A DNA stretch of 39,968 nucleotides from Escherichia phage PH1061, in sequence record OQ680138.1; one strand, 5' to 3'. How positions within the stretch are numbered: the first letter of the stretch is position 1; each line of letters begins with the position of its first letter. Below the pieces are notes generated by a model. It searched no databases and was not told the DNA's origin. It worked only from the letters and a program-made list of their open reading frames with translations. Shown in pieces: positions 4,953 to 27,326 of this stretch. The position numbers and the translations under genes were made by a program.

Positions 4953-5333
4953 ATGGCTCCCTCTGGAGTCTCCAACCTAAACGGTAGACATCTTGGTTAT
5001 AGACGAAAGGATGGGTACTGGATTCTAAGTACGACAAAGGGCCAACTGCTGGCCCACCGAGTAGTCTGGGAACTAACCCACGGCCAGATACCAGAAGGGA
5101 TGGTGATTGATCATATCAACCGGGACCCTTCGGATAACAGGATTGAGAACCTCAGGTGTGTGACTCAGGCGGTGAACCTCACTAACGTTCCAACCCGTAG
5201 TCACTGCCAATCTGGAGAGAAATACGTTCAATACCAGAAATCAACTGGTCGCTGGCAACTGAGGATAAAGCGTAAGTCATACGGTACGTTCGATACCATA
5301 GCCGAGGCGGTAGCCTTAAGAGATTCATTATAA
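4953..5333 (+). CDS. HNH homing endonuclease with C-terminal AP2-type DNA-binding domain
   Basis: Motif DHINRDPSDNRIENLR followed by an AP2-like segment GEKYVQYQKSTGRWQLRIKRKSYGTFDTIAEAVALRD; start set at the first ATG after the ligase stop (track ORF begins inside ligase). Confidence 0.8.
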   Translation: MAPSGVSNLNGRHLGYRRKDGYWILSTTKGQLLAHRVVWELTHGQIPEGMVIDHINRDPSDNRIENLRCVTQAVNLTNVPTRSHCQSGEKYVQYQKSTGRWQLRIKRKSYGTFDTIAEAVALRDSL

Positions 5334-5339
5334 CGTCAA

Positions 5340-5378
5340 CCCAGTGGTCTCATGACTGCTGGGTTTCTCTGCTTTGTG
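5340..5378 (+). terminator. Rho-independent terminator (early terminator TE analog): 10-bp stem CCCAGUGGUC / GACUGCUGGG, loop UCAU, then U-rich tail
   Basis: Read from sequence; located after ligase/HNH as T7 TE follows gene 1.3. Confidence 0.65.
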
Positions 5379-5411
5379 CTATCAATCTATCATCTGGGCC
5401 ACCAGGCTGAC

Positions 5412-5434
5412 CCTAAGCTATCACTATAGGACAA
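5412..5434 (+). promoter_or_regulatory. Phage RNAP promoter variant, TAAGCTATCACTATAGGA, +1 near 5429
   Basis: One mismatch to consensus at about -13. Confidence 0.7.
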
Positions 5435-5462
5435 CCATAACTTCGACCTAAGGAGGCCGACC

Positions 5463-5723
5463 ATGTTTAAGAACTTAATGTTCAATCGTTATACCAGTAC
5501 ATTCCACCTGTCTCACAACCCGTTCGCTTGCATTAAGCGCAACGAGAAGCTGGGCTACTTCGGGAAGGCCGTTAAGCTGTCACCTACAGTCTTCGCTCTG
5601 ATTACTCCGGGTAAAGCTGAAGAGGCTAGCCAGAAGCGTGAGACCAACGTACCTGTGGTCTACACCAAGTGGCCTCGTGTTCGCCTGTTCATTGAGTTCG
5701 TGAAGGAGGTGGTCAATGCTTAA
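5463..5723 (+). CDS. Hypothetical protein, 86 aa (gene 1.6 position)
   Basis: ORF with RBS AAGGAGG; positional analogy only. Confidence 0.6.
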   Translation: MFKNLMFNRYTSTFHLSHNPFACIKRNEKLGYFGKAVKLSPTVFALITPGKAEEASQKRETNVPVVYTKWPRVRLFIEFVKEVVNA

Positions 5724-6159
5724 GGTTGGGGATACAGTTGAATATGTTGGACCTGTTAAAGCCTACATGGGACTCTCCTGTGGCAAGGTGATTATGGTTA
5801 GAATGGGGCACATAGTTGTTGTTAAGTGGCCCTGTTCACCTGAACCAGTCATTCACTCCTCTAGTGCCTTAAGTATTACCAATCAGGAGCAGGCTGAGAC
5901 GCCAACCATAGGTCAGGAAGACAGCGTCCGTAAGCCGTCACACTATCAGGTCTTTGACGGTGTGGAATCCATTGGGATTATCGCTCGGTCCATGACTGTC
6001 AGTGAGTTCCGTGGTTTCTGCATGGGTAACGTCCTGAAGTATCGACTCCGAGCTGGTAAGAAGTCAGAGCTGGCGACTATGGAGAAGGACCTGAACAAAG
6101 CAGCCTTCTATCAGGAGCTGTTCGACCTGCATAAAGGTAAGTGCTATGACTCCAAGTAG
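5716..6159 (+). CDS. 1.7: Gene 1.7-like protein (T7 gp1.7 nucleotide kinase family), 147 aa, with a divergent N-terminal part
   Basis: C-terminal KPSHYQVFDGVESIGIIARSMTVSEFRGFCMGNVLKYRLRAGKKSELATMEKDLNKAAFYQELF matches the T7 gp1.7 C-terminus as recalled. Confidence 0.75.
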   Translation: MLKVGDTVEYVGPVKAYMGLSCGKVIMVRMGHIVVVKWPCSPEPVIHSSSALSITNQEQAETPTIGQEDSVRKPSHYQVFDGVESIGIIARSMTVSEFRGFCMGNVLKYRLRAGKKSELATMEKDLNKAAFYQELFDLHKGKCYDSK

Positions 6160-6237
6160 CTGGTGCTTTAGACAGTGGGTCTCAACCGGGAATGTGGACT
6201 ACCTGTCCATGTACCATATGTGGAAGGAGAAAGGACT

Positions 6238-6396
6238 ATGAGCCTTGAAGAGAAGAAATACATCGTGGAGCTTGAGGGTCGCGTTCAGTCCTTCGAGGTT
6301 CCGGTGTACGCAAAGTCTCTTGAAGAGGCTACCCTGAAGTCCCAAGAGTATGAGGACGCTGGGTTTGTGGTCGGACGAATCCGTCCTGAGACCTAA
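6238..6396 (+). CDS. 2: Gp2-like inhibitor of host RNA polymerase, 52 aa
   Basis: [14 protein letters not shown] matches T7 gp2 SFEVPIYAETLDEA; strong RBS GGAAGGAGAAAGGACT; the track ORF's GTG start at 6175 is less likely. Confidence 0.8.
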
Positions 6397-6414
6397 ACTA
6401 TCACTGTAGGACAG
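6392..6414 (+). promoter_or_regulatory. Phage RNAP promoter variant (phi2.5-like), CTAAACTATCACTGTAGGA, +1 near 6409
   Basis: One mismatch (-3 A to G); overlaps the gp2 stop codon. Confidence 0.65.
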
Positions 6415-6453
6415 ACGTCCAGTTCGTAACTTTAAATTAGGAGATTTACACCA

Positions 6454-7152
6454 ATGGCTAAAGAGCAACTGAAGACTTTCACCACCCCGGTAGCTGGTAC
6501 CGTTGAGCCTTACGCATGGCTGAACAAAGCAGATACCAAGTTTAACGAGCGTGGTGAGCATAAGGTTAACCTGACTTTCAGTCTGGGTGACCCGAAGGTC
6601 CGTAAGATGATTGATGTCTTACAGAAGATTCACGACGATGCGTATGCGAAAGCACTCGCAGACCACGAGAAGAACCCACCTAAGGTTCAGCGTGGCAAGA
6701 AGCCTATTGAACCACGAGAAGGCGACATGCCGTGGATTGAGAATGGTGACGGTACTGTTACCCTGAAGTTTAAATGCTTCGCGTCTTACCTGAAGGATGG
6801 TAAGTCAGAGCCTATCGTATTACGGTTCTACGACACCGATGCTAAGTTAATCAGTGACGTCCCGAATATTGGCGCTGGCTCAAAGCTGAAGGTCAAGTTT
6901 AAAGTCGTGCCGTTCAAGTGGAACGCTGCGACTGGTGCAAGCGTTAAGCTCCAGCTTGAGTCCTGCCTTCTGGTAGAACTGAAGGAATGGAAAGGTGATG
7001 GTGCTGGTGGAGATGGTGGCTGGGGCGATGATGAAGACCTCGGTACTGGCTACAAAGCGTCAACCGATGGTGACTTCGGGTCTGGTGACTTCGGTGACGA
7101 TGGTTCCGAAGGTGGTGATGGCTCTAACTCTGGTGGCGATTACGACTTCTAA
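6454..7152 (+). CDS. 2.5: Single-stranded DNA-binding protein, 232 aa, acidic C-terminus ending DF
   Basis: Same length as T7 gp2.5; conserved blocks PKVQRGKKPIEPREGDMPW and GASVKLQLES; acidic tail with terminal Phe. Confidence 0.93.
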   Translation: MAKEQLKTFTTPVAGTVEPYAWLNKADTKFNERGEHKVNLTFSLGDPKVRKMIDVLQKIHDDAYAKALADHEKNPPKVQRGKKPIEPREGDMPWIENGDGTVTLKFKCFASYLKDGKSEPIVLRFYDTDAKLISDVPNIGAGSKLKVKFKVVPFKWNAATGASVKLQLESCLLVELKEWKGDGAGGDGGWGDDEDLGTGYKASTDGDFGSGDFGDDGSEGGDGSNSGGDYDF

Positions 7153-7604
7153 TGGCCCAATGGTCTGCAAAACGGGGGCACTCTGTGGGTGCCTACCGCT
7201 CTGGACTTGAAGCCAAGAACCAGCAGTGGCTGGAACAGAACGGCGTCAAAGCGGAGTACGAAAGCCATTATATCAACTATGTGATTCCGGCTTCCGACCA
7301 CAAGTACACACCAGATTTTATCCTTCCTAACGGTATCATCGTAGAGACCAAAGGTATCTTCGATAGTGATGACCGTAAGAAGCACCTTCTGATACGAGAA
7401 CAGCACCCAGAGTTAGACATCCGGTTCGTGTTCTCAAGTTCCCGCTCAAAGTTATACAAAGGGTCTCCGACCACGTATGGCGCATGGTGCGAAAAGAACG
7501 GCTATAAGTATGCCGATAAGTTCATCCCGGTTGAGTGGCTGCGAGAGGCGACTGTACGTCTGCCTTCAGGCCTACTCATTCCCAAGAAGAAAGGAGTTAA
7601 GTAA
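7152..7604 (+). CDS. 3: Endonuclease I (Holliday junction resolvase), 150 aa
   Basis: Colinear with T7 gp3 (149 aa) from memory; YTPDFILPNGIIVETKG block. Confidence 0.88.
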   Translation: MAQWSAKRGHSVGAYRSGLEAKNQQWLEQNGVKAEYESHYINYVIPASDHKYTPDFILPNGIIVETKGIFDSDDRKKHLLIREQHPELDIRFVFSSSRSKLYKGSPTTYGAWCEKNGYKYADKFIPVEWLREATVRLPSGLLIPKKKGVK

Positions 7605-8059
7605 TGACTACCTGTAAAGACCTTGAAGTTGGAACACGTTACAGATTCTCAAAGAACACCCTGCTGAATAATCCCCAATTCACTGATGCTGTTTTCGAAA
7701 AGCGAGAAGACCATAGCGTAATTGTGGAGAAGGGGTGGCATCCTGAGGATTACATCGGTGAGACTACCAGCTGGAATGGTCACGAGACCTACAGTGTAGA
7801 AGTTGTTGAACAGCCTCAGGTCCTTCCAGCTTCAAGTGTCCCTCCTGTCACCGTTAAACGTGAAGTCCTGACCATCAACAAGATTGGTGTAGGTCAGACG
7901 TTCATCGTCCACGGTAAGCCTGACGAAGTGTACGTGAAGATTAGCAACTCTCACGTCTTCAACCACAAGCGACTCCAGATGCACACGACTGACGCACAGC
8001 GCTTCCAGTCACATCTGAATCTGGTGGTAGTAGAACTAGTTGTTTATAATGGAAAGTGA
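7604..8059 (+). CDS. Hypothetical protein, 151 aa, between endonuclease I and lysozyme (no T7 counterpart)
   Basis: ORF with ATGA-type coupling to gene 3 and RBS AAAGGAG; no recognisable motif. Confidence 0.6.
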   Translation: MTTCKDLEVGTRYRFSKNTLLNNPQFTDAVFEKREDHSVIVEKGWHPEDYIGETTSWNGHETYSVEVVEQPQVLPASSVPPVTVKREVLTINKIGVGQTFIVHGKPDEVYVKISNSHVFNHKRLQMHTTDAQRFQSHLNLVVVELVVYNGK

Positions 8060-8420
8060 CTGCATCGAGTGGGCTAAGAGTCGCAATAAGGATGGCTATG
8101 GTAGACGTAAATTCCGTGGTCAATCTATGGGTGCTCATAGAGCAGCTTGGATAGAGACCAATGGTGCTATACCGGGAGGTCTTGTCGTAAGACACAAGTG
8201 TGATAACCGTGCATGCGTAAACATTGAGCACCTTGAGTTGGGGACTCAGGCAGAAAACATGATGGACTGCTCAGTACGCAGGACATTTAATTCAAAACTA
8301 ACTGAAGATGACGTTGAGGATATTCGCACCTCAAGCGAGACCCTTAAGTTTATGGCTGAAAAATACTCAGTAAGTGAGACAACCATAAGTCGAATCAGGA
8401 ACCACAAGAGGTGGAAATAA
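8049..8420 (+). CDS. HNH homing endonuclease (family B), about 123 aa
   Basis: Motif RHKCDNRACVNIEHLELGTQAEN; lower GC than surroundings; paralog of 26877..27326. Confidence 0.8.
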   Translation: MESDCIEWAKSRNKDGYGRRKFRGQSMGAHRAAWIETNGAIPGGLVVRHKCDNRACVNIEHLELGTQAENMMDCSVRRTFNSKLTEDDVEDIRTSSETLKFMAEKYSVSETTISRIRNHKRWK

Positions 8421-8422
8421 TA

Positions 8423-8887
8423 ATGGGAAGTAAAGTACAATTCATGCCACGCAAGTCAACTGACGCTATCTTCGTTCACTGTTCGGCTACCAAGCCAGAT
8501 ATGGACATCGGGGTAGAGACCATCCGTATGTGGCATAAACAGCAAGGCTGGCTGGACGTAGGCTACCACTTTATCATCAAGCGCGATGGCACTGTGGAAG
8601 AGGGTCGCCCGGTCAATGTCGTAGGGTCACACGTTAAGGACTGGAACTCCAAGTCCGTAGGCGTCTGCCTTGTAGGTGGAATTGACGCTAAGGGCAAGTT
8701 TGAAGCTAACTTCACTCCGGCCCAGATGAACTCCCTGCGCAACAAGCTGGAGGAGCTTATGAGTAAGTACCCTAATGCAGAGCTAATGGCCCATCATTCA
8801 GTAGCAGCCAAGGCCTGTCCGAGTTTCGACGTGAAGCGATGGTGGACCAAGAATGAACTGGTTACATCTGACCGCGAATCAGTTTAG
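8423..8887 (+). CDS. 3.5: Lysozyme / N-acetylmuramoyl-L-alanine amidase (T7 gp3.5 homolog)
   Basis: DAIFVHCSATKP, WLDVGYHFIIKRDGTVEEGR and CPSFD match T7 lysozyme; start set at ATG with RBS rather than the track's upstream start. Confidence 0.93.
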   Translation: MGSKVQFMPRKSTDAIFVHCSATKPDMDIGVETIRMWHKQQGWLDVGYHFIIKRDGTVEEGRPVNVVGSHVKDWNSKSVGVCLVGGIDAKGKFEANFTPAQMNSLRNKLEELMSKYPNAELMAHHSVAAKACPSFDVKRWWTKNELVTSDRESV

Positions 8888-9209
8888 TATCGACCCATCT
8901 AGTCCCTCAGGTCTATCCAGAAATGGTAAGCCTACTGGATGGGACGCTGGTAGATATTGGAGGACTAAGGTTAAAGGGAGGCCAGTAATGTGCCACGTCA
9001 TAATCATGATGCTCAAAACTGGAGGTCCTCTACCCGATGGAATGGAAGTTGACCATATTGACCGTGACGGCCATAACAACAGGATTGACAACCTCAGGAT
9101 TGTGACTAGGCAAGTCAACGTATGCAACACCAGCGTTAGGAAGGACTCAAAGTCTTTCAAAACATCTAATGGAGCCATCGAATGGCTAGGGGAGCAACTC
9201 AATGATTAA
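8853..9209 (+). CDS. HNH homing endonuclease (family A), about 118 aa
   Basis: Motif VDHIDRDGHNNRIDNLRIVTRQVN; overlaps the 3' end of the lysozyme gene; lower GC; paralog of 4953..5333. Confidence 0.75.
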   Translation: MNWLHLTANQFSIDPSSPSGLSRNGKPTGWDAGRYWRTKVKGRPVMCHVIIMMLKTGGPLPDGMEVDHIDRDGHNNRIDNLRIVTRQVNVCNTSVRKDSKSFKTSNGAIEWLGEQLND

Positions 9210-9417
9210 ACTTATCGAATTTCTTGGTCGCCTGGTGGTGCGTGGTTATCGTCGTGCTGCGGTACTGGAACGAAAGGTAGAAAAGAAGACTGCTGACGGT
9301 GCGGCTGAGGCTGCTGCTTTGGCTGACAAGCTGACCATCGCGTCACTGGAAGCTGGCATGAAGGCACGTCAAGCTGACACCAAAGCTGACCAGTTGGCTC
9401 AGTTCTTCAAAGACTAA
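9202..9417 (+). CDS. Hypothetical protein, 71 aa
   Basis: ORF with RBS; Ala/Lys-rich predicted helical protein. Confidence 0.55.
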   Translation: MIKLIEFLGRLVVRGYRRAAVLERKVEKKTADGAAEAAALADKLTIASLEAGMKARQADTKADQLAQFFKD

Positions 9418-9435
9418 ACTATCACCTTAGGGATG
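9413..9435 (+). promoter_or_regulatory. Phage RNAP promoter variant (phi4-like), CTAAACTATCACCTTAGGGA
   Basis: Two mismatches at -4/-3 relative to consensus; located upstream of primase-helicase. Confidence 0.5.
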
Positions 9436-9482
9436 GGACCACGAGTCCTGTCCCTCTGTTCGCATTTGTGATTAAGGAGTGA

Positions 9483-11186
<1,704 letters not shown>

Positions 11187-11228
11187 GCGTGATATAGCTG
11201 ATTATAAGAATTTTATGGAGGACCGTTA

Positions 11229-11393
11229 GTGTTAAATAAACTTAAAGCTCGCTACCATCGGTTCATGTACAAATGGTGGAGCGATGAAGCAACCTTCCTG
11301 TCCAACATTCTAGGAGACCAGAGGTTCGACTCTAAGGCGTGGAAGAGAGCTAACCGGAAGTTTATGTATCACTTCTTGCGTACAGACTTCTAG
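11229..11393 (+). CDS. Possible small protein, 54 aa, GTG start (gene 4.x position)
   Basis: RBS GGAGGA 8 nt upstream of GTG; below track cutoff. Confidence 0.3.
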   Translation: MLNKLKARYHRFMYKWWSDEATFLSNILGDQRFDSKAWKRANRKFMYHFLRTDF

Positions 11394-11403
11394 GTCTAGA
11401 CTC

Positions 11404-11428
11404 AAGGTCATTCACATCGAGTGGCCTT
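11404..11428 (+). promoter_or_regulatory. RNase III-type processing hairpin (R4.7-like): 10-bp stem AAGGUCAUUC / GAGUGGCCUU
   Basis: Paralog of 3405 and 34622 hairpins with conserved flanks TAGACTCAAGG and ATGATTA. Confidence 0.65.
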
Positions 11429-11456
11429 TATGATTAGACTAAACGGAGGATTAACC

Positions 11457-13643
11457 ATGTTTGACCTTAAGAGTATCTGGGGTTCTGACATCGAGACCAA
11501 CGGTCTCCTTGATACAGTCTCCCAGTTCCACTGTGGGGTCCTGATTAACGCCGAGTCGAATGAGACCCTTAAGTATGGGGTAGCTCCGATGGTCGGTATC
11601 GTCGGTGGCTTCAAAGAGTATGTTCATAAAGTGGAAGAGATTGCCGCATCACCTGATGGTATGCTGGTATTCCACAACGGTATCAACTACGACGTCCCGG
11701 CTATTGATAAGCTGAAGCGTCTGTACTTTGGGAAACGCTTTAACTTCCCGAAACACAAGATGATTGATACCTTGGTGCTGGGTCGCTTGATGTATCCCAA
11801 CATTAAGTTCTCAGACATGGGAGCGGTGAAATCGGGCCGTCTGCCACCTAATATGATGGGACGTCAGTCTCTTGAGGCTTGGGGTTATCGTCTCGGTGAG
11901 ATGAAAGGTGAGTACAAACACGATTACGTTGCCAAGTGCAAGGCTGAAGGTATCGAATATAAGGCTGGGGACGAGTGGTTGTTCCCGTCTCAGGAGATGC
12001 TGGACTATAACGTTCAAGACGTTGTGGTCACACTGGCGTTGTTCAAGAAGTTCCTGACTGACAAGTATTACTTCCAGTCTGAACAGTTCGCTTTCGACCA
12101 GATTTATGCGTTGCGTCTGGAACATGATGCTGCGTGGACCTGTGCGAAGATGGAACGTAACGGCTATCCGATGAACACCGAGATGGTCGAAGGCTTATAT
12201 CGTGAACTCACCGTCAAACGTGCAGAGTTGTTGGACAAGCTGCGTTCGACTTTCGGTAGCTGGTATGCACCAAAGGGAGGCAAGGAGTTCTTCAGGCATC
12301 CACGGACAGGTAAGGACCTTCCGAAGTATCCGCGAGTCGTGTATCCTAAGGTAGGGTCAGTATTCAAGAAGCCGAAGAACAAAGCTCAACGCTTAGGTCT
12401 GGAACCTTGCGAGTTCGACTCACGAGACACGATGGAGGGAGCACCGTTCACACCTATCACTTACGTTGAGTTTAATCCGGGAAGCGGAGACCACTTAGCG
12501 AAAGTCCTGATGGAGCGTGGCTGGGAGCCTGTGGACTTCACTGACACCGGGAAACCTGTAGTCGATGACGAGACGTTAGAACACGTTAAGTTGCCAGACG
12601 CAGAGGCTCAGGCTTGTGTAGAGCTGGTCCGTGAGTATCTGGTAGTCCAGAAGCGCATCGGTCAGGCTGCTGAAGGTAAGAACGCATGGTTGAAACTTGT
12701 AGGTCCAGACGGACGTATGCACGGTTCAATCAACCCATGCGGGGCAGTAACCGGACGTGCGACTCATAGTGCACCAAACATGGCTCAGGTCCCGGCTAAC
12801 GGTGCTCCGTATGGTGAGATTTGCCGTAGTGCTTTCGGTGCAGCGTGGAACAAGCTGACATTCCCGGACGGACGGCAGTTACCGGACCCTTGGATTCAAG
12901 TTGGTGTGGACGCTTCAGGTCTTGAGCTTCGTTGTCTGGGGAACCGAGCAGCTCCGTTTGATGGTGGTGCCTATGCGAAGACTGTGGTCGAAGGTGACAT
13001 CCACTGGGCCAACGCAGTAAACGCTGGTTTAGCACCTAACGTCCCACGCGATAAGTCGAACCACGACCATGATGCTTTCCGTAACAACGCTAAGACGTTC
13101 ATCTATGCGTTCCTGTATGGTGCAGGGGCCGCTAAGATTGGACTTATAGTAGGCGGTGGGAAGAAGGAAGGTTCAGCTCTCATGAAGAAATTCATTGAGG
13201 GTACACCAGCCATCAAGGACCTCAGGGAAGCTGTGAGTAATACGTTAATCTCAGACTCTAAGTGGGTGGACGGAGAGAACATCGTCAAGTGGAGACGCCG
13301 TTGGTTGCGCGGACTTGACGGTCGCCGTATCCACATCCGGTCGCCACACTCAGCACTGAACGCCTTACTTCAAGGTGATGGTGCGGTAGTCTGTAAGCAC
13401 TGGATTGTCGAGACCGAGCGTATGCTCGAAGAGGCCGGGTATGTCCACGGCTGGGAAGGAGACTTCGCGTACATGGCTTGGGTTCACGATGAGCTACAGA
13501 TTGCTTGTCGTACTCAGGAGATTGCCGAAGAAGTCGTCAAGATTGCTCAACTTGCTATGCGTAAGGTGGGTGAGTTCTATAACTTTAAATGCGTCCTTGA
13601 TACCGAAGGTAAGATTGGACCAACGTGGAAGGAGTGTCACTAA
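11457..13643 (+). CDS. 5: DNA polymerase (family A) with 3'-5' exonuclease and thioredoxin-binding insert, 728 aa
   Basis: DIETNGL exo motif; KKPKNKAQRLGLEPCEFDSRD matches the T7 thioredoxin-binding segment; C-terminal ...KIGPTWKECH; start at ATG 11457 with RBS (track ORF starts upstream at GTG). Confidence 0.96.
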   Translation: MFDLKSIWGSDIETNGLLDTVSQFHCGVLINAESNETLKYGVAPMVGIVGGFKEYVHKVEEIAASPDGMLVFHNGINYDVPAIDKLKRLYFGKRFNFPKHKMIDTLVLGRLMYPNIKFSDMGAVKSGRLPPNMMGRQSLEAWGYRLGEMKGEYKHDYVAKCKAEGIEYKAGDEWLFPSQEMLDYNVQDVVVTLALFKKFLTDKYYFQSEQFAFDQIYALRLEHDAAWTCAKMERNGYPMNTEMVEGLYRELTVKRAELLDKLRSTFGSWYAPKGGKEFFRHPRTGKDLPKYPRVVYPKVGSVFKKPKNKAQRLGLEPCEFDSRDTMEGAPFTPITYVEFNPGSGDHLAKVLMERGWEPVDFTDTGKPVVDDETLEHVKLPDAEAQACVELVREYLVVQKRIGQAAEGKNAWLKLVGPDGRMHGSINPCGAVTGRATHSAPNMAQVPANGAPYGEICRSAFGAAWNKLTFPDGRQLPDPWIQVGVDASGLELRCLGNRAAPFDGGAYAKTVVEGDIHWANAVNAGLAPNVPRDKSNHDHDAFRNNAKTFIYAFLYGAGAAKIGLIVGGGKKEGSALMKKFIEGTPAIKDLREAVSNTLISDSKWVDGENIVKWRRRWLRGLDGRRIHIRSPHSALNALLQGDGAVVCKHWIVETERMLEEAGYVHGWEGDFAYMAWVHDELQIACRTQEIAEEVVKIAQLAMRKVGEFYNFKCVLDTEGKIGPTWKECH

Positions 13644-18941: not shown

Positions 18942-18964
18942 ACTAAACTATCACTATAGGGAGA
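18942..18964 (+). promoter_or_regulatory. Phage RNAP promoter (phi10-like, strongest consensus), CTAAACTATCACTATAGGGAGA, followed by a 5' leader stem-loop
   Basis: Full consensus including GGGAGA start; leader GGGAGACC...GGUUUCCC stem-loop resembles the T7 phi10 leader. Confidence 0.9.
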
Positions 18965-19059
18965 CCAAGATCGAGGTTTCCCTATTACTTCAGTCCATAC
19001 GGATTGGGCGTACAGTAAGTAATAAACTTTATCTTTCAATTGAATAGGAGAATTATCAT

Positions 19060-20103
19060 ATGGCAAACGTTCCGGGTCAGAAAATTGGTACAGACCAAGG
19101 TAAAGGCAAATCCAGTTCCGACGCTCTGGCGTTGTTCCTGAAGGTATTTGCTGGTGAAGTCCTGACCGCATTCACTCGCCGCTCTGTAACTGCTGACAAG
19201 CATATTGTCCGTACCATTCAGAACGGTAAGTCTGCTCAGTTCCCGGTCATGGGTCGCACCTCTGGTGTGTATCTGGCTCCGGGTGAGCGACTGTCCGATA
19301 AACGTAAAGGTATCAAACATACTGAGAAAGTGATTACCATTGATGGTCTGCTGACTGCCGATGTGATGATTTTTGACATTGAAGACGCGATGAACCACTA
19401 TGACGTGGCTGGTGAGTATTCCAACCAGTTGGGTGAAGCGCTGGCTATCGCTGCCGATGGTGCGGTTCTGGCTGAAATGGCTATCCTGTGTAACCTCCCG
19501 GCCGCATCCAACGAGAACATCGCTGGTCTGGGTACTGCGTCCGTACTGGAAGTTGGTAAGAAAGCTGACCTCGACACACCGGCTAAACTTGGTGAAGCAA
19601 TCATTGGTCAACTGACCATTGCTCGTGCGAAGTTGACCTCCAACTACGTTCCTGCTGGCGACCGTTACTTCTACACCACGCCGGACAACTACTCCGCAAT
19701 CCTCGCGGCTCTGATGCCGAACGCTGCTAACTATGCTGCGCTGATTGACCCGGAGACTGGTAACATCCGTAACGTTATGGGCTTCGTTGTTGTTGAAGTT
19801 CCGCATCTGGTACAGGGTGGTGCTGGTGAGACCCGTGGTGACGATGGTATCTCTATCGCTTCCGGTCAGAAACACGCATTCCCGGCAACTGCTACTGGCG
19901 ACGTTAAAGTTGCTATGGACAACGTTGTGGGTCTGTTCTCTCACCGTTCTGCTGTGGGTACTGTGAAGCTGCGTGACTTGGCGCTGGAACGTGACCGTGA
20001 CGTCGATGCTCAGGGCGACCTGATTGTTGGTAAATACGCTATGGGTCACGGTGGTCTGCGACCAGAAGCGGCAGGCGCACTGGTTTTCAGCCCAGCGGCG
20101 TAA
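19060..20103 (+). CDS. 10A: Major capsid protein 10A, 347 aa
   Basis: Size and position of T7 gp10A (345 aa); strong RBS TAGGAGA; followed by a Tphi-like terminator. Confidence 0.95.
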   Translation: MANVPGQKIGTDQGKGKSSSDALALFLKVFAGEVLTAFTRRSVTADKHIVRTIQNGKSAQFPVMGRTSGVYLAPGERLSDKRKGIKHTEKVITIDGLLTADVMIFDIEDAMNHYDVAGEYSNQLGEALAIAADGAVLAEMAILCNLPAASNENIAGLGTASVLEVGKKADLDTPAKLGEAIIGQLTIARAKLTSNYVPAGDRYFYTTPDNYSAILAALMPNAANYAALIDPETGNIRNVMGFVVVEVPHLVQGGAGETRGDDGISIASGQKHAFPATATGDVKVAMDNVVGLFSHRSAVGTVKLRDLALERDRDVDAQGDLIVGKYAMGHGGLRPEAAGALVFSPAA

Positions 20104-20234
20104 GCACCTTTAGCCAACCTAACGTCGCTACAGTAGCGGCTGCACCTGAAGAGGAGACTCTAACTCCTCAACAGAAAGCTGCGCGTACTCGTGCTGCGAA
20201 CAGGGCCGCTAAACTGGCTGAGTCCAACAACTAA
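19060..20234 (+). CDS. 10B: Putative minor capsid protein 10B produced by a -1 ribosomal frameshift near 20082..20088 (GGTTTTC)
   Basis: The -1 frame is open from the slippery site to TAA at 20232..20234, adding about 50 aa (...VSTFSQPNVATVAAAPEEETLTPQQKAARTRAANRAAKLAESNN); arrangement mirrors T7 10A/10B. Confidence 0.55.
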
Positions 20235-20240
20235 TTGAAA

Positions 20241-20277
20241 CCCCTTGGGTGCCTTCGGGTGCTTGAGGGGTTTTTTT
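20241..20277 (+). terminator. Tphi-like late terminator: CCCCUUGGGUGCCUUCGGGUGCUUGAGGGG followed by UUUUUUU
   Basis: Close resemblance to T7 Tphi (AACCCCTTGGGGCCTCTAAACGGGTCTTGAGGGGTTTTTTG) and same position after gene 10. Confidence 0.9.
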
Positions 20278-20298
20278 GCTTAAAGTGAGAGGAGACTT

Positions 20299-20865
20299 AT
20301 GGCTCAATACATTCCACTGAATACTAACGATGACTTAGACGCCATCAACGATATGTTAGCAGCTATCGGTGAACCAGCAGTCCTACAGCTTGATGAAGGC
20401 AACGCTGATGTTTCGAACGCACAACGTATCCTGCATCGTGTCAATCGTCAGGTCCAAGCTAAAGGCTGGAACTTTAATATCAACGAAGCTGCTGTCCTGA
20501 CACCTGATGTCCAAGACAAGAGGATTCGATTCTTGCCGTCATACCTTCGTGTAATGACCGCTGGGGCCACCAGCTACTACAGCAACATGGGTGGATACCT
20601 GTATGACCTATCCACTCAGTCAACCACTTTCACCGACCCTATCACGGTAGAGCTTGTGGAGATGAAGCCATTCTCCGAGATGCCTGTGGTCTTCAGGGAC
20701 TACATCGTCACTAAAGCTAGCCGTGAGTTCAACGCTAAGTTCTTCGGTAGCCCAGAGTCAGAGCTATACCTTCGTGAGCAGGAAGCAGAACTCTATCAGC
20801 AGGTTATGGAGTACGAGATGGACACTGGTCGCTACAACATGATGTCTGACATCGGGAGGGACTAA
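20299..20865 (+). CDS. 11: Tail tubular protein A, 188 aa
   Basis: Size and position of T7 gp11; RBS GAGAGGAG. Confidence 0.88.
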   Translation: MAQYIPLNTNDDLDAINDMLAAIGEPAVLQLDEGNADVSNAQRILHRVNRQVQAKGWNFNINEAAVLTPDVQDKRIRFLPSYLRVMTAGATSYYSNMGGYLYDLSTQSTTFTDPITVELVEMKPFSEMPVVFRDYIVTKASREFNAKFFGSPESELYLREQEAELYQQVMEYEMDTGRYNMMSDIGRD

Positions 20866-21092
20866 TGGCTAGTCACAACCTGAAGATTCACCGCCGGCAC
20901 TTTGGTCCGGTACAGCTAGGTATAAAGACAGCAGAGCTGAGACTTAACGACCGGGACTTTAAGGTTGGCGATTGGCTTATCCTGAATGAGTGGGACAACG
21001 GGTATACTGGACAACAGGTAGCGCGTAAGGTTATCCACATTGCTGACGTTGGTGACATCGCTGAAGGATACGTCCTAATGAGTATGATTTAA
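20865..21092 (+). CDS. Small ASCH/PUA-like (DUF3850-type) protein, 75 aa, inserted between tail tubular genes 11 and 12
   Basis: Pattern HNLKIH..HFGPVQLGIKTAELRLNDRDFKVGDWLILNEWD...EGYVLMSM fits DUF3850 as recalled; ATGA-type overlap with the gene 11 stop. Confidence 0.6.
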   Translation: MASHNLKIHRRHFGPVQLGIKTAELRLNDRDFKVGDWLILNEWDNGYTGQQVARKVIHIADVGDIAEGYVLMSMI

Positions 21093-21101
21093 GGAGGGCC
21101 T

Positions 21102-23459
21102 ATGCCACTAATTACTCAATCAATCAAGAACCTTAAAGGTGGCATTAGCCAGCAGCCTGATATACTGAGGTTCTCAGACCAAGGCGAGGCACAGGTTAAC
21201 TGCTGGTCATCCGAGAGTGATGGCCTCCAGAAGCGCCCACCTACAGTCTTCAAGCGACGTCTTAACATCGACGTTGGTAGCAACCCTAAGTTCCACCTGA
21301 TTAACCGTGACGAGCATGAGCAGTATTACATCGTGTTCAATGGGTCCAACATTCAGGTAGTTGACTTGAGTGGTAATCAATACTCAGTGTCCGGTGCGGT
21401 AGACTACGTTAAGTCCTCCAACCCGCGAGATGACATCCGTGTCGTTACCGTGGCAGACTATACGTTCGTCGTTAACCGTAAGGTTGTCGTCAAAGGTGGA
21501 AGCGAGAAGTCACACTCTGGTTATAACCGCAAAGCACGAGCTTTAATTAACCTGCGTGGTGGACAGTATGGTCGAACCCTTAAGGTGGGAATCAACGGTG
21601 GCGTTAAGGTATCGCATAAGCTACCAGCAGGTAATGATGCCGAGAATGACCCGCCTAAGGTGGACGCTCAAGCCATTGGTGCAGCTCTGAGAGACCTTCT
21701 TGTTCAGGCCTATCCTGACTTCACGTTCGACCTTGGGTCTGGCTTCCTGCTAATCACAGCTCCTTCAGGGACCGACATTAACTCAGTGGAGACGGAGGAT
21801 GGCTACGCTAACCAGCTAATAAGCCCAGTCCTAGACACTGTGCAGACAATCTCTAAACTACCTCTTGCCGCTCCTAATGGGTATATCATTAAGATTCAAG
21901 GTGAGACAAACAGTAGCGCCGATGAATACTACGTGATATATGACTCCAACACTAAGACGTGGAAGGAGACAGTGGAGCCTGGAGTTGTCACTGGGTTCGA
22001 TGTCACCACAATGCCACATGCTCTGGTCAGACAGTCTGATGGCTCCTTTGAGTTCAAGACTCTGGATTGGTCCAAGCGTGGTGCTGGTAACGATGACACA
22101 AACCCTATGCCTAGCTTCGTGGATGCTACGATTAACGATGTGTTCTTCTACAGGAACAGACTTGGGTTCTTGTCGGGTGAGAACGTAATCATGAGCCGTT
22201 CAGCCAGCTACTTTGCGTTCTTCCCTAAGAGTGTGGCGACACTGAGTGATGATGACCCTATTGATGTAGCTGTAAGTAACCCTCGAATCTCAATCCTTAA
22301 GTATGCCGTTCCGTTTAGCGAGCAGCTACTACTTTGGTCGGATGAGGTTCAGTTCGTGATGACAAGCTCTGGGGTACTTACCTCGAAGTCTATCCAGCTT
22401 GATGTGGGCTCAGAGTTTGCCCTAGGTGACAATGCCAGACCGTTCGCTGTAGGACGCTCAGTCTTCTTCTCAGCTCCTCGTGGGTCATTCACCAGTATTA
22501 AGCGATACTTCGCTGTAGCTGATGTGTCTGATGTGAAGGATGCAGATGATACAACTGGTCACGTACTGTCCTACATCCCTAACGGGGTGTTTGATATTCA
22601 AGGTACAGGGACTGAGAACTACATCTGCGTCAACTCTACAGGTGCATACAACCATATCTACATCTACAAGTTCTTGTTTAAGGACGGCGTACAGCTTCAA
22701 GCCTCTTGGTCACACTGGGAGTTCCCTAAAGATGATAAGATTCTGGCGTCTGCTTCTATTGGCTCTACCATGTTCATCGTTCGTCAGCACCAAGGAGGGG
22801 TAGACATTGAGCACCTTAAGTTCATCAAGGAGGCAACTGACTTCCCGTCAGAGCCATATAGACTACACATTGACTCCAAGGTGTCTATGGTAATTCCAAT
22901 TGGCTCATATAATGATGACACCTATAAGACTACGGTTGACATTGGTGCTGCTTATGGCGGCAACGCTCCGTCTCCCGGTCGGTACTATCTGATTGACAGT
23001 CAGGGTGCTTATGTGGACCTTGGGTACTTGACCAGTATCTCTACTGTGGTTAGCCTCAACGGCGATTGGTCAGGACGCACAGTGTTCATCGGACGCTCCT
23101 ATCTGATGTCCTACAAGTTCTCACGGTTCCTGATTAAGATTGAAGATGATAGTGGAGCTAAGTCTGAAGACACTGGTCGTCTACAGCTTCGTCGGGCTTG
23201 GGTAAACTACAAAGACACTGGCGCTCTGAGGCTCATTGTCAGAAACGGTGAGCGGGAGTTCGTGAACACCTTCAACGGGTACACCCTTGGTCAGCAGGCA
23301 ATTGGGACTACAAACATTGGGGATGGACAGTATCGCTTCGCTATGAACGGTAACGCATTAACCACGAGTCTAACCTTAGAGTCCGACTATCCTACCCCAG
23401 TGTCAATCGTTGGGTGTGGCTGGGAGGCGTCATACGCTAAGAAAGCTCGTTCCGTCTAA
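21102..23459 (+). CDS. 12: Tail tubular protein B, 785 aa
   Basis: Size and position of T7 gp12 (794 aa); RBS AAGGAGGG. Confidence 0.92.
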   Translation: MPLITQSIKNLKGGISQQPDILRFSDQGEAQVNCWSSESDGLQKRPPTVFKRRLNIDVGSNPKFHLINRDEHEQYYIVFNGSNIQVVDLSGNQYSVSGAVDYVKSSNPRDDIRVVTVADYTFVVNRKVVVKGGSEKSHSGYNRKARALINLRGGQYGRTLKVGINGGVKVSHKLPAGNDAENDPPKVDAQAIGAALRDLLVQAYPDFTFDLGSGFLLITAPSGTDINSVETEDGYANQLISPVLDTVQTISKLPLAAPNGYIIKIQGETNSSADEYYVIYDSNTKTWKETVEPGVVTGFDVTTMPHALVRQSDGSFEFKTLDWSKRGAGNDDTNPMPSFVDATINDVFFYRNRLGFLSGENVIMSRSASYFAFFPKSVATLSDDDPIDVAVSNPRISILKYAVPFSEQLLLWSDEVQFVMTSSGVLTSKSIQLDVGSEFALGDNARPFAVGRSVFFSAPRGSFTSIKRYFAVADVSDVKDADDTTGHVLSYIPNGVFDIQGTGTENYICVNSTGAYNHIYIYKFLFKDGVQLQASWSHWEFPKDDKILASASIGSTMFIVRQHQGGVDIEHLKFIKEATDFPSEPYRLHIDSKVSMVIPIGSYNDDTYKTTVDIGAAYGGNAPSPGRYYLIDSQGAYVDLGYLTSISTVVSLNGDWSGRTVFIGRSYLMSYKFSRFLIKIEDDSGAKSEDTGRLQLRRAWVNYKDTGALRLIVRNGEREFVNTFNGYTLGQQAIGTTNIGDGQYRFAMNGNALTTSLTLESDYPTPVSIVGCGWEASYAKKARSV

Positions 23460-23483
23460 CTTATTGAAGGGCCTATAGATTTA

Positions 23484-23506
23484 CCTTAACTATCACTATA
23501 GGGACT
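23484..23506 (+). promoter_or_regulatory. Phage RNAP promoter (phi13-like), CCTTAACTATCACTATAGGGA
   Basis: Consensus match. Confidence 0.85.
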
Positions 23507-23535
23507 ATAGGCCCTTAAGGTTATAAGGAGACTTT

Positions 23536-24006
23536 ATGTATATTCGCAAGGCTACGGAACAGGATGTCCACTATTTTCTGGGGCATCTTTCAGCAGATGA
23601 TGTTAATGAATGCAAAGCAAACTACGGGTCAACCGTGGGTCTCTCTGAAAGACTGCTTAAGCACCTATCTCCGTCATCTGTGGTTTTAACGAACGGTGTA
23701 GGAGAAGTGTTTGCCTATGGTGGAAACCAAGGGGATAACGTATGGTTCTTGACTTCCGGTCTGGTCCACAAGCTGAGACCTAAAGAGAAGCGAGAGTTCA
23801 TAAAGCGTATCTCTGAGTACAGGGACTTAATGTTAGACCAATACGGGACCATCTGGAACTACGTGTGGTCAGGCAATAAGTCTCACATTAAATTCTTGAA
23901 GTTGCTTGGGGCTAAGTTCCATGATGATTGGACTATCAGCCCGGTAACTGGTGAGCGTTTTCAATTATTCACTATCTCTAAGGAGGACGTATGTGTGAAC
24001 CCGTAA
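23536..24006 (+). CDS. 13: Internal virion protein A (gp13-like), 156 aa
   Basis: Position and size; RBS AAGGAGA. Confidence 0.75.
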   Translation: MYIRKATEQDVHYFLGHLSADDVNECKANYGSTVGLSERLLKHLSPSSVVLTNGVGEVFAYGGNQGDNVWFLTSGLVHKLRPKEKREFIKRISEYRDLMLDQYGTIWNYVWSGNKSHIKFLKLLGAKFHDDWTISPVTGERFQLFTISKEDVCVNP

Positions 24007-24578
24007 GTATCGGCATGGGTATCATGGCTGTAGCAGGGGCCACTATGTCCGCATCACAACAGGCCAAGGCCGAAGGTGCAGCAATTGACGCTCAGAACCG
24101 ACAGGCTCAGGAAATGGTTAAGCAGATGAACTACTCTGACGCCAACCTGAGGATGCAGGAGCGAGACCTGAAGGAGCAGCAGATGGCTGAACTGACAGAG
24201 ACCACGCTAAACGGTATCCGCAATCAGGGTATGGTACGAGCTGCGGTGGCTGAGTCAGGTCTGGAAGGTAACTCTATGGACAGGATTGAACGTCAGGTCG
24301 AAGGAGATACAGTCAAGGAGCGAGCAGGGATTACCGAAAGTTACAACCGCGACTATGCGGCTATCTTCGGGAACCGTATCACCAACATTGAGAACACCAA
24401 GTCTGCTATCCGTGGTCAGGGTAAAATCATCAGGACCAGCCCACTGGCTCATGCACTTAATGTTGCTAGCGCCGGGATGCAGGGATATGCTGCTGGTAAG
24501 TCAATATCCGGGGCAACAAGCTCTGGTGATGCTGCACCTATTAGTGCTGCTAAAGGCACACCTACAGGCCATAGCTAA
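23991..24578 (+). CDS. 14: Internal virion protein B (gp14-like), 195 aa
   Basis: N-terminus begins MC... as in T7 gp14; near-identical length to T7 gp14 (196 aa). Confidence 0.85.
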   Translation: MCEPVSIGMGIMAVAGATMSASQQAKAEGAAIDAQNRQAQEMVKQMNYSDANLRMQERDLKEQQMAELTETTLNGIRNQGMVRAAVAESGLEGNSMDRIERQVEGDTVKERAGITESYNRDYAAIFGNRITNIENTKSAIRGQGKIIRTSPLAHALNVASAGMQGYAAGKSISGATSSGDAAPISAAKGTPTGHS

Positions 24579-24589
24579 GAGGAGGACTA

Positions 24590-26872
24590 ATGGCTAGTAA
24601 TATTGAATCAGCTCTGGCTAATCGGACTATGGGTCGCGGCAGAGCGCCGGGTAAAACTATCGCTGTCAACTATCAAGCAGCCAGCATTCAGGCTCCGACT
24701 GGTGACTCCGGTCTGGCTCGTGCATTAACCAACTTCGTTGAGTCTGGGACTGGATTATACAAGCAGTTCAAAGACGAGGAGAAGACACGGGCCGACGAGC
24801 GGTCTAACGAGATTATCCGTAAGTTGACACCTCAGCAGAGACGTGAGGCTATCCAGAACGGCACATTGCTGTATCAGGATGACCCTTACGCTATGGAAGC
24901 ACTTCGAGTCAAGACTGGTCGTAATGCTGCCTTTGCTGTAGACGACGAGATTAACGTTAAGATTCAGAACGGTGAGTTCCGCACACGTCAGGAAATGGAA
25001 GAATATCGCCACCAGCGACTTCAGGATGCCGCTAAGTCCTATGCTGAAGAGGCGGGTATTAACCCTACCGATGAGTTCTTCCAGCGCGGGTTCAACGATA
25101 ACATCACTGACCGCAACATCGCTATCTATGGGTCCTTCAATAAGTATTTCAGTAAGCAGTCTGAAGAGACAGCAATGTTGAATACTCGTATTGAGATGAA
25201 CTCATTCCTGAACGATGGCGACCTGATGCGCTCACCTGAGTCCGGTAAGACCTTCATGGCCTACCTTCGTGATGGACTGACTACTGCTGCTATTCCTTCG
25301 GACCAGCGAGCACGGGAGGTCATTACCCAGACGGTCCGTGACGCAATCCAGAAGTCCGGCGGCTCAAACTTCCTACAGCAAGTACGAGGTGAGCGAATCA
25401 CCCTTAACGGTGTGGATGCTACAGTCGAAGAGATTGTAGGACCGGATGTCTTCAACGCTGCCATTGTTGAGGCACAAGGCACTGAGTACAAGCTGGTGGC
25501 TAAGTATCAGGAAGACTTGGCGTTAGGCGTTCAGTCTGCGATTCTTCAGGATGACCCGACCATAGGGCTGGCCCAGATTCAGAAACTCAAGGAGCAGAAC
25601 AACCTGCTTCAGCCGGGTGAAGAACTCACGCCTCAGCGTCAGATGCTTATTAATGCCGAAGCCAGCTTACTGGAAGCGGTCAAGCGGAAGTCTGCTGAAC
25701 AGGCGAAGGAGAACACTAAGTTAATCCAGACTCAGAACAAGCAACTGGTCATTGACCAAGTGTATCAGCGACGTCTGGCTGGGGATAACGTGTCCACCAA
25801 CTATGAGGACCTTCCGGTCTCAGATGCTACAGGCGAGTTCAAGCGTTCTGACATGAACAACTATGCGTCTGCCAAGCTACAGCAGATTGACCAGATGGAC
25901 ATTCCTGAGGCTGCTAAAGACGCTCAGAAGGTGGCATTGTTAAGAGCTGACACTAACAACGGTCCGTTCCGTAATGCCTTCCAGACGCTGACTCAGGACG
26001 CTGCTGGTGAGTGGCAATCTGCGGTAATCCGTGGACAGTACGACCCAGACAAGATGCAACGCTTCGAATCTCTTCGTCGGGCCTACACTCAGGACCCTTC
26101 AAGTTTTGCTGCTCTGTATCCTGACCAAGCCCAGTTGTTCTCTACGTTCGACCAGATGGACAAGATGGGTCTGGACCCTCAGACGATGATTGAAGCTGAT
26201 AAACAAGCTGCAAGTCAAAGCCGTGAGATGCGCATGGAGTCAGACAAGGCGTGGCAGGAGTTGAAGAACGACTCTCGGAATAAGGACCTTTCGCGTCTTC
26301 CTACGTCTCTGGACTCAAGTGCTCGTAAGGTCTGGGACTCATGGTACTATCGTACAGGTAACGCTGACGCTGCCACTCAGCAGACTCAACGCTGGCTGAA
26401 TGAGAACACCGTAACGTTCCAGTCTGAAGGTTCTGACGGTAAGTCCATCGGCATGGTGTCCAAGCACCAGCTTATGGTCGGGGATAACCCAGAGTCGTGG
26501 CAGGTTGGTCGAGACATTATCGACACCGCTCGTAAGCAGCTCATTAAGGCCAACCCTTGGGTAGTGAACTCTCAGTTGTCCGTTGTTGAACAGAACGGCT
26601 CTATCTTCCTCCAAGACGCTACAGGGACTATTCGTATTCGCTACGATAAAGAACTTGTAGGTAAACTCTACCGCGAACAACAGCAGAAGGCACAAGATGC
26701 CGCATACGCTCAGGCAGAACGTGACGCTAACAAGAGAGCGCGTATCGTCGGGACTAAAGCTGCTGGTGACAAACGTCGAGCTGACCGAGAGGCCAACATC
26801 GAGAAGCGCGGAGGGATGTACAATGACGTCTCATTGGAGGGTATCGCAAACGTACTAATCGGTAAGGAGTAA
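24590..26872 (+). CDS. 15: Internal virion protein C (gp15-like), 760 aa
   Basis: Size and position of T7 gp15 (747 aa); RBS GAGGAGG. Confidence 0.88.
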   Translation: MASNIESALANRTMGRGRAPGKTIAVNYQAASIQAPTGDSGLARALTNFVESGTGLYKQFKDEEKTRADERSNEIIRKLTPQQRREAIQNGTLLYQDDPYAMEALRVKTGRNAAFAVDDEINVKIQNGEFRTRQEMEEYRHQRLQDAAKSYAEEAGINPTDEFFQRGFNDNITDRNIAIYGSFNKYFSKQSEETAMLNTRIEMNSFLNDGDLMRSPESGKTFMAYLRDGLTTAAIPSDQRAREVITQTVRDAIQKSGGSNFLQQVRGERITLNGVDATVEEIVGPDVFNAAIVEAQGTEYKLVAKYQEDLALGVQSAILQDDPTIGLAQIQKLKEQNNLLQPGEELTPQRQMLINAEASLLEAVKRKSAEQAKENTKLIQTQNKQLVIDQVYQRRLAGDNVSTNYEDLPVSDATGEFKRSDMNNYASAKLQQIDQMDIPEAAKDAQKVALLRADTNNGPFRNAFQTLTQDAAGEWQSAVIRGQYDPDKMQRFESLRRAYTQDPSSFAALYPDQAQLFSTFDQMDKMGLDPQTMIEADKQAASQSREMRMESDKAWQELKNDSRNKDLSRLPTSLDSSARKVWDSWYYRTGNADAATQQTQRWLNENTVTFQSEGSDGKSIGMVSKHQLMVGDNPESWQVGRDIIDTARKQLIKANPWVVNSQLSVVEQNGSIFLQDATGTIRIRYDKELVGKLYREQQQKAQDAAYAQAERDANKRARIVGTKAAGDKRRADREANIEKRGGMYNDVSLEGIANVLIGKE

Positions 26873-26876
26873 CATA

Positions 26877-27326
26877 ATGAAGAACGGGACAGCCAGTGAG
26901 AGACTGGCAGAACTGTCAGTAACCGAAGAGTCTGGCTGTATCCGCTTCACCGGAAGCATTGAGAAGTCCGGTTATGGAAGGATAATGATTAATAGGGTAA
27001 AATATGGAGCGCATAGACTTGCTTACGAGCTTGCTAATGGTCCTATACCCGATGGGTACGTTGTTCGCCATAAATGCGACAACCCGTCCTGTATAAACCC
27101 AAGCCACCTTGAAGTTGGCACACAAGCTGACAACATAAAGGATAAGGTGACTAGAGGTCGCCAAGCATCAGGATGCTCCATAGGAGTATCTAAGCTCACT
27201 GAGGAAATTGTGAGAGACATAAGGTCCAGCGACCTAAAGGTTTCACTCTTGGCGGAACGATATGGAGTGAGTACGGTTTCTATTAGAAATATATTGAGGA
27301 GAAAGACATGGCAACACGTGGTGTAA
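26877..27326 (+). CDS. HNH homing endonuclease (family B), 149 aa, inserted between genes 15 and 16
   Basis: Motif RHKCDNPSCINPSHLEVGTQADN; paralog of 8049..8420; lower GC. Confidence 0.8.
   Translation: MKNGTASERLAELSVTEESGCIRFTGSIEKSGYGRIMINRVKYGAHRLAYELANGPIPDGYVVRHKCDNPSCINPSHLEVGTQADNIKDKVTRGRQASGCSIGVSKLTEEIVRDIRSSDLKVSLLAERYGVSTVSIRNILRRKTWQHVV

Follow-up and report, generated by a model that had tools for sequence, protein, structure and literature searches.

The genome of Escherichia phage PH1061 (sequence record OQ680138.1), analysed here as a single window of 39,968 nucleotides (nt), carries four genes that are most probably free-standing homing endonuclease genes (HEGs), each encoding a two-module protein that combines an HNH nuclease with a DNA-binding domain. 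The window is T7-like and circularly permuted, with every gene on the plus strand, and PH1061 is a Kayfunavirus, that is, a T7-like phage of the K1F group of Studiervirinae. We infer homing from the distribution of the genes among relatives, the boundaries of their insertion sites, flanking sequences that vary together with them and decay products, all of which were read from sequence. The genes fall into two families, A and B, with two members each:

4872 to 5333, plus strand: A1, family A HNH and AP2 endonuclease gene, with 4872 as probable start (HNH_3 and I-HmuI matches, AlphaFold2 model and Foldseek comparison, homology to CR44b 3.8A, Shine-Dalgarno sequence)
8049 to 8420, plus strand: B1, family B endonuclease gene with HNH and C-terminal helix-turn-helix (HTH) domains, intact, 123 amino acids (aa) (HNH_3 at 60 bits, identity to T7 gp7.7)
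8853 to 9209, plus strand: A2, family A HNH gene of 118 aa whose AP2 domain is truncated (HNH_3 at 56 bits, alignment with pO2)
26877 to 27326, plus strand: B2, family B HNH and HTH endonuclease gene between gp15 and gp16 (HNH_3 at 63 bits, identity to T7 gp7.7)

An earlier note on this DNA had predicted four HNH open reading frames (ORFs) and had suggested a hidden Markov model (HMM) search as a check. All four are present on the plus strand, and all exceed the gathering cutoff of Pfam HNH_3 (PF13392; 24.8 bits), with scores of 78.3 bits for A1 (4953-5333), 56.1 for A2 (8853-9209), 60.2 for B1 (8049-8420) and 63.1 for B2 (26877-27326). The split into two families proposed in the same note was recovered with PHROGs, where A1 and A2 belong to phrog_99 and B1 and B2 to phrog_59, and pairwise BLASTP agrees: B1 and B2 are 45% identical over 132 aa, their full length, and A1 and A2 are 39% identical over the 87 aa of the core, whereas cross-family matches are weak and limited to the HNH core. 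Family A is T7 gp3.8-like, with an HNH domain and an AP2 domain, and family B is T7 gp7.7-like, with an HNH domain followed by an HTH at the C terminus. Relative to T7 gp7.7 itself, B1 is 42% identical over 126 aa (full length; expect value [E] 2e-34) and B2 is 50% identical over 128 aa (E 2e-40); the B2 tail is identical to a peptide annotated as a predicted helix-turn-helix in CR44b 7.7C. The family B core follows the pattern RHKCDN...C...HLE...N, and C21, H46, R64-H65, C67-D68-N69, C72, N74, H77 and N86 are invariant in 10 family B sequences. Chance open frames or mis-annotations, which the small size of the genes and the lack of annotation of homologues in several GenBank records might suggest, have next to no probability and were rejected, given Pfam scores of 56 to 78 bits, hundreds of homologues and reading frames conserved across diverged copies.

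No fifth HNH copy was found in the window when all six-frame ORFs of 30 aa or more were scanned, filters off, with a family HMM built from the four genes and the CR44b paralogues (next match, E ~1). Likewise, HMM, blastn and tblastn searches detected no HNH copy or scar at the other HEG sites of Kayfunavirus (before and after the DNA polymerase gene, 7.3/8, 18.5/19, after 19, and 2.5/3).

The start of A1 had been placed at ATG 4953. The real gene is probably 4872-5333 (153 aa), starting at GTG 4872 and overlapping the last 71 nt of the ligase gene, because homology to CR44b 3.8A (gp3.8A) begins at 4926, upstream of that ATG; because no stop interrupts the frame after GTG 4872, a codon preceded by a GGAGGA Shine-Dalgarno sequence; and because eight A1 homologues (P0001-P0008; 60-89% identity) are all gene-called with an equivalent N-terminal extension. 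Among solved structures, the closest to family A in both sequence and fold is I-HmuI (PDB 1u3e), the intron-encoded HNH nicking enzyme of Bacillus phage SPO1. A1 alone matches I-HmuI at E 5e-4, with I-HmuI residues D74, H75, N87 and N96 aligned to the D-H...N...N residues, and a profile of 34 sequences (A1 and 33 homologues) matches it at 2e-10. In the AlphaFold2 model of A1 (mean predicted local distance difference test score, 91.9), residues 50-78 form a strand-strand-helix (beta-beta-alpha) unit, and the top PDB match of the whole model in Foldseek is again 1u3e (probability 1.00; template modeling score 0.50 over 85 columns).

The A1 tail is assigned to AP2 from the family profile and the model, since Pfam AP2 gave no match on the isolated tails. 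The profile matches plant AP2/ERF proteins over the tail (WRI1, 1.6e-7; TEM1, 5e-5; ERF096, 0.008), PF00847 is present in some A1 homologues, and the tail is modeled as three strands and a helix. AP2 entries rank low in Foldseek for the whole model (7wq5, E 0.58; 3igm, E 3.6), the HNH half dominating that comparison, so that the support from the fold is one of topology. The AP2 hairpin of A1, shorter by ~4 residues than is typical of the family, is below Pfam AP2 detection. An AP2-like tail had been noted on one copy only; it is indeed found on A1, but A2 once had such a tail too and lost 29 codons of it.

All four genes were compared with relatives that lack them, as the earlier note had advised, and in each case the empty site is gene-precise, with sporadic presence of the gene at a fixed position. 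Nucleotide-level comparisons took in 10 to 17 relatives. The A1 site lies between the ligase stop codon and a terminator hairpin:

5338 to 5365, plus strand: TE-like intrinsic terminator hairpin, a 12-bp stem followed by a T run, bounding the A1 insertion site on the right

The hairpin is kept in the empty sites of ZG49, SD6, pO2 and CR44b. In ZG49, SD6 and pO2, the empty site is clean and reads TAA-CTAAAY-GTCAACCC. CR44b carries a scar of ~38 nt (6487-6530, equivalent to window positions 4943-5333) consisting of ~10 nt of the 5' edge of A1 and 28 nt of its 3' end, which points to earlier loss of an A1-type gene. In EFA-1, Zappy and phiHAO1-1, A1 homologues are intact (88-98% aa identity, single frame) yet unannotated.

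The B1 insert (8058-8421) is missing from CR44b, EFA-1 and pO2. The gene is bordered by the lysozyme gene and, rather than by gene 3 as first thought, by a gp3.01-like gene (7604-8059). Comparison with the empty sites identified two copies of an imperfect direct repeat around it:

8047 to 8059, plus strand: left copy of TAATGGRAAGTRA, the imperfect 13-nt direct repeat on either side of B1
8421 to 8433, plus strand: right copy of the 13-nt repeat, with the lysozyme ATG at 8423

The repeat corresponds to the old overlap of the gp3.01 stop and the lysozyme start. The left copy now serves both to start B1 and to end the gene before it, so that B1 starts on the former lysozyme ATG and lysozyme uses the duplicated copy; the lysozyme start is accordingly ATG 8423, not GTG 8411, giving the N terminus MGSKVQF as in relatives. 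Among the relatives, the ZH4 copy of B1 (5580-5952) has a frameshift and is split into two annotated ORFs. In ZG49, the last 35 codons (~100 nt) of B1 are what is left of the gene, and they are present twice (10406-10510 and 10792-10896). The two ZG49 remnants sit in what looks like a local duplication, in which a portion of the endonuclease I/lysozyme region is repeated as well.

The neighbors of A2 are lysozyme and, ahead of primase, a small gp3.7-like gene (9202-9417), so that A2 is not directly before primase as the earlier note had it; with these two corrections of neighbors, the claim that the four genes sit at junctions of conserved genes stands. The A2 insert (~8877-9187) takes the place of ~15 nt between lysozyme and the gp3.7-like gene, and its start is an ATG within the lysozyme 3' end. 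A2 encodes 147 aa in pO2 and Esher2 and 118 aa in PH1061 (401 nt there versus 314 nt here), and pairwise alignment with pO2 reveals a single in-frame deletion of 87 nt (29 codons) between short AAGTCT repeats:

9143 to 9155, plus strand: A2 deletion junction (pO2 alignment; overlapping BLAST pieces 8422-9155 and 9142-9586)

The deletion takes out SGIKGVAYRAGRTKPYVAHKQRFGERTSK, which corresponds to the AP2 beta-strands, and leaves the HNH core intact, with the catalytic D-H...N...N residues retained. Hence, as far as membership of the HNH-AP2 family is concerned, A1 has the C-terminal AP2 domain and A2 does not. Because the AP2 strands, most of the DNA-binding domain, are gone, A2 is probably defunct as a site-specific enzyme and a decaying copy. 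Zappy (5879-6055) has an A2 remnant of ~136-177 nt at the same lysozyme/gp3.7 site, smaller than the PH1061 copy, so that a series can be laid out from full length (pO2) through AP2-deleted (PH1061) and remnant (Zappy) to empty. Together with the CR44b scar at the A1 site and the ZH4 frameshift in B1, these copies represent several stages of decay.

The B2 insert (26877-27307) is positioned exactly at the gp16 ATG of ZG49; the stretch missing in ZG49 and ST31 is 26880-27307. By comparison with the ZG49 empty site, B2 uses the old gp16 Shine-Dalgarno sequence and ATG position, overlaps the gp16 start by 19 nt and contains a replacement signal:

27296 to 27301, plus strand: GAGGAG Shine-Dalgarno sequence inside the B2 3' end, serving the displaced gp16 start, ATG 27308

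To place these sites in a wider context, megablast with two sub-regions of the window retrieved ~226 related records, nearly all of them Kayfunavirus, from Escherichia, Salmonella, Enterobacter and Citrobacter hosts; coverage of region 3900-9500 by any one record is at most 80%. Gene-only blastn against 50,697 phage records was then used to count full-length copies. Each of the four genes is missing from 90-99% of the ~226 related records. A1 is full length in 11 records (4 at ≥96% identity and 7 at 80-84%), B1 in 2 (SD6, at 99% identity, and ZH4), A2 in 2 (pO2 and Esher2) and B2 in 16, which form divergence classes from 97% down to 71% nt identity; ~6 further records have a more divergent HNH gene at the gp15/gp16 junction. 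At most two of the four genes occur together in one record: A1 and B2 in EFA-1, and B1 and B2 in SD6 and ZH4. For each of the four, some deposited genome contains a gene at the corresponding locus with at least 97% identity over the shared sequence (the A2 relatives having 87 additional nt), and three of the four counterparts are labeled HNH endonuclease; the gene at the B1 site is labeled "hypothetical" in both other records that have one. Since each gene is missing from most relatives and all four match an HNH model, the earlier description of them as genes of the homing endonuclease type is upheld. The gp15/gp16 location, which had been called unusual, turned out not to be: ~10% of relatives hold an HNH gene there (the 16 full-length and ~6 divergent copies, among ~225 records), and CR44b annotates its own as "predicted homing endonuclease 7.7C." By amino acid sequence, B2 is 98% identical to the EFA-1 and NW-B1 proteins, 97% to that of LNA5 and 90% to CR44b 7.7C.

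Sequences next to the genes were compared by BLAST identity per 100-nt window in 10 to 11 genomes per site. At the A1, A2 and B2 sites, flanking blocks track the presence of the HEG:

4450 to 5333, no strand assigned: block co-inherited with A1, a putative co-conversion tract comprising the last ~490 nt of ligase and A1
8700 to 8887, no strand assigned: lysozyme 3' end co-inherited with A2
27308 to 27390, plus strand: gp16 5' end, a candidate target or immunity region of B2 (nucleotide and protein comparison, 11 genomes)

At the A1 site, windows 4500-5299 are 89-100% identical to the A1-bearing phages EFA-1 and Zappy. Farther upstream (4000-4399), identity to these two phages is 37-83% or there is no match, versus 88-98% to PE3-1 and 86-94% to SD6 and Vec13; window 4400 is 90-94% identical to every relative and does not discriminate. 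At the A2 site, positions 8700-8899, where lysozyme ends, share 97-100% identity with pO2, which has A2, and Zappy, which has the remnant, compared with 55-79% with eight other relatives. Around B2, the gp15 3' end upstream of the gene is 97-98% identical to the HEG-less ZG49 and ST31 and 71-87% identical to HEG-bearing genomes. In the first ~80 nt of gp16, HEG-bearing and HEG-less genomes differ in clusters: identity of PH1061 to the HEG-less genomes is 59-78% there and 94-99% farther out. HEGs and other nuclease genes mark recombination boundaries in phages (PMC10448857), and the flank patterns in these 10 to 11 genomes per site fit both co-conversion and nuclease genes at recombination boundaries.

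Several observations weigh against homing by active HNH nucleases. The co-varying flanks could reflect ordinary mosaic recombination instead of break-induced conversion. No NCBIfam model matches any of the four proteins. In family B, the catalytic His and the final Asn are kept, but R replaces D before the catalytic His, H replaces the structural Asn and there is a Cys cluster; because two canonical residues are replaced and the Cys cluster is present, the chemistry of this family is less certain. The family B profile matches I-HmuI weakly (E 0.035), along with HTH-like matches, and a PDB sequence search with B2 alone gave no match. Deviation in GC and codon usage is also weak. The G+C content (GC) is 0.491 for A1, 0.449 for B1, 0.462 for A2 and 0.462 for B2, against 0.497 for the genome, and the mean of the HNH genes (0.466, versus 0.496 for other genes) is low by permutation at p ~0.02 among all genes and ~0.04 among small genes. 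Of the claim that all four have lower GC than their neighbors, what survives is a low four-gene mean, a weak effect; A1 is at the genome mean. GC was therefore not accepted as a strong sign of foreign origin.

One alternative is that the genes are inactive relics, passive passengers of homologous recombination between mosaic Kayfunavirus genomes. The loss of the AP2 strands from A2 and the scars and frameshifts in relatives are what such relics would look like, and Kayfunavirus genomes are mosaic throughout, for example, at 5700-5900, 7600-7800 and 29366-29916. Yet A1, B1 and B2 are full-length ORFs with all catalytic residues, and they look intact and functional; recombination breakpoints, moreover, fall at gene edges. 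Ratios of nonsynonymous to synonymous substitution rates (dN/dS; Nei-Gojobori) range from 0.06 to 0.26 when B2 is compared with eight copies at its site and from 0.07 to 0.20 when A1 is compared with four, which indicates that these proteins are maintained, and they are far below 1 even where dS exceeds 1. We consider passive carriage of relics very unlikely.

The same purifying selection (dN/dS 0.06-0.26) is also what would be expected of accessory nucleases kept for a benefit to the phage, such as degradation of competitor or host DNA or help with replication or packaging, rather than self-propagating genes, and so is the intact state of all eight copies examined at the gp15/gp16 site, at 59-98% aa identity. 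This explanation, which seems unlikely to us, has to contend with the absence of each gene from 90-99% of close relatives, which grow well, and with copies that decay by deletion and frameshift. None of the four genes adjoins terminase, and T7-like phages are not known to need an HNH partner for packaging. A benefit to the phage and homing can coexist. An observation in favor of a benefit comes from Hafnia phage Ca, where genomes that had lost a family A HEG dominated small plaques, taken by the authors as a fitness effect (PMC8861465).

For the gp15/gp16 site, a variant of homing can be formulated. There, dS goes up to 1.6 even though the virion genes on either side are ~95% identical, so that the alleles are much older than their flanks. 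Given 59-98% aa identity with every copy examined intact, dS of up to 1.6 and flanks at ~95%, repeated allele replacement would fit: long-lived, diversifying family B alleles would take part in interference competition between co-infecting Kayfunaviruses, each allele cutting genomes with no allele or with another allele, and not in simple one-off homing. In this scenario, a neighboring HEG could keep the defunct, AP2-deleted A2 in existence by mobilising it in trans, as mobE does for I-TevIII. Taken as a whole, the scenario is tentative and rather improbable.

If the four genes are homing genes of the ordinary kind, the reading that we favor, their action can be sketched on the model of I-HmuI and of the mob and seg genes of T4. 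The N-terminal module is the HNH (beta-beta-alpha-metal) nuclease, and the C-terminal module (AP2 in family A, HTH in family B) is the DNA-binding part. During co-infection with a HEG-less relative, the enzyme would nick or cut the DNA of that relative near the empty site; the phage recombination system would mend the break from the HEG-bearing genome; and repair would copy in the HEG together with some flanking sequence. The arrangement at each site keeps the neighboring genes translatable: B2 takes the gp16 start and supplies a new ribosome-binding site for gp16, B1 duplicates the lysozyme start region, and A1 (from its probable start) and A2 begin within the 3' end of the gene before them.

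Genes of both families are known from other T7-like phages. The T7 reference record lists HNH endonuclease genes 3.8, between lysozyme and primase, and 7.7, as well as an "endonuclease" gene 2.8 and the terminator TE after ligase, and CR44b has five annotated HNH genes, one of which, 7.7C, separates genes 15 and 16. T7 gp7.7 and gp2.8 and CR44b 7.7, 7.7B and 7.7C share the architecture of family B (HNH with a C-terminal HTH), and 7.7C occupies the same gp15/gp16 junction as B2; a point of difference is the B1 site, which is occupied in just two other records. In the literature searched, no measured cleavage site was found for a family B member, T7 gp7.7 included. In family A, to which T7 gp3.8 and CR44b 3.8A and 3.8B belong, A1 has 41% identity over 128 aa with CR44b 3.8A and, over the core, 35% with T7 gp3.8, with the HNH-then-AP2 order in common; the interval of T7 gene 3.8 (lysozyme to primase) is that of A2, and gene 1.45 of phiYeO3-12 is an HNH gene after ligase, as is A1. 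HNH-AP2 proteins are described as a recognised HEG family in PMC10448857, which also has IPA-HNH relatives, with reference to Magnani 2004; compared with typical members, the AP2 hairpin is shorter in A1 and the AP2 domain is largely deleted in A2.

Among better studied systems, I-HmuI shares its C-terminal HTH with family B, whereas family A has AP2 instead, and I-HmuI is intron encoded, with NUMOD-type modules, whereas the genes in the window are free-standing. The mobE and seg genes of T4 are likewise free-standing between conserved genes, sporadic among relatives and able to mobilise flanking DNA (PMC2790892, PMC2330249): mobE, an HNH gene, takes its flanking DNA along with it (PMC2790892), and cutting and copying by recombinational repair have been shown for both mobE and segB (PMC2790892, PMC2330249). 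These genes belong to another phage lineage and to other sequence families, and their mobility is experimental, whereas in PH1061 it is deduced. Closer to PH1061, Hafnia phage Ca, a Kayfunavirus, displays presence/absence polymorphism of HEGs within a stock (PMC8861465). HK97 gp74, the terminase-associated HNH case cited in that paper, is unlike the genes described here, none of which adjoins gp18 or gp19; the 18.5/19 junction of PH1061 is empty.

Other features of the window and of the related records were observed in passing. The N-terminal part of the gp1.7-like gene (5725-5916) is a mosaic patch with a match in Zappy and phiHAO1-1 only, and CR44b annotates its own 1.7 as being without the N-terminal region. 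A second mosaic patch, the N-terminal half of the gp3.01-like gene (7604-7813), has a match in SD6 and Vec13 only. The gp16 gene (27308-31696) encodes 1462 aa in PH1061 versus 1295 aa in CR44b, EFA-1 and ZG49: residues 691-863 (29366-29916), rich in coiled-coil-like sequence, replace 6 residues, and the long form is also found in ST31 and ZH4 (4389-nt genes). The 3' two-thirds (32400-33900) of the gp17 tail fiber gene (31761-33881) have a GC of 0.39-0.41, versus 0.50 for the genome, and are unmatched in CR44b, EFA-1 and ZG49, which is what exchange of a receptor-binding module would be expected to give. The ~1.5 kb after the large terminase gene (36922-38400) has no long ORF and a lower GC; it probably represents the genome ends or terminal repeat, together with the early promoter region, of a permuted assembly. 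Finally, three Kayfunavirus-like or T7-like genomes are filed as Enterococcus, Acinetobacter and Staphylococcus phages (MT350292.1, PV615262.1 and OR786095.1), host labels that look doubtful, and the EFA-1 record carries the flag UNVERIFIED_ORG.

The phenomenon itself is already known, as the families are annotated in T7 and multiple HNH genes per genome are annotated in Kayfunavirus, and the importance of the four PH1061 genes beyond annotation is small. By-products of the analysis are the corrected start of A1 and the recognition of A2 as a deletion derivative. With the intermediates of gain, decay and loss found among the relatives, these loci would be a convenient place to test for homing in T7-like phages.

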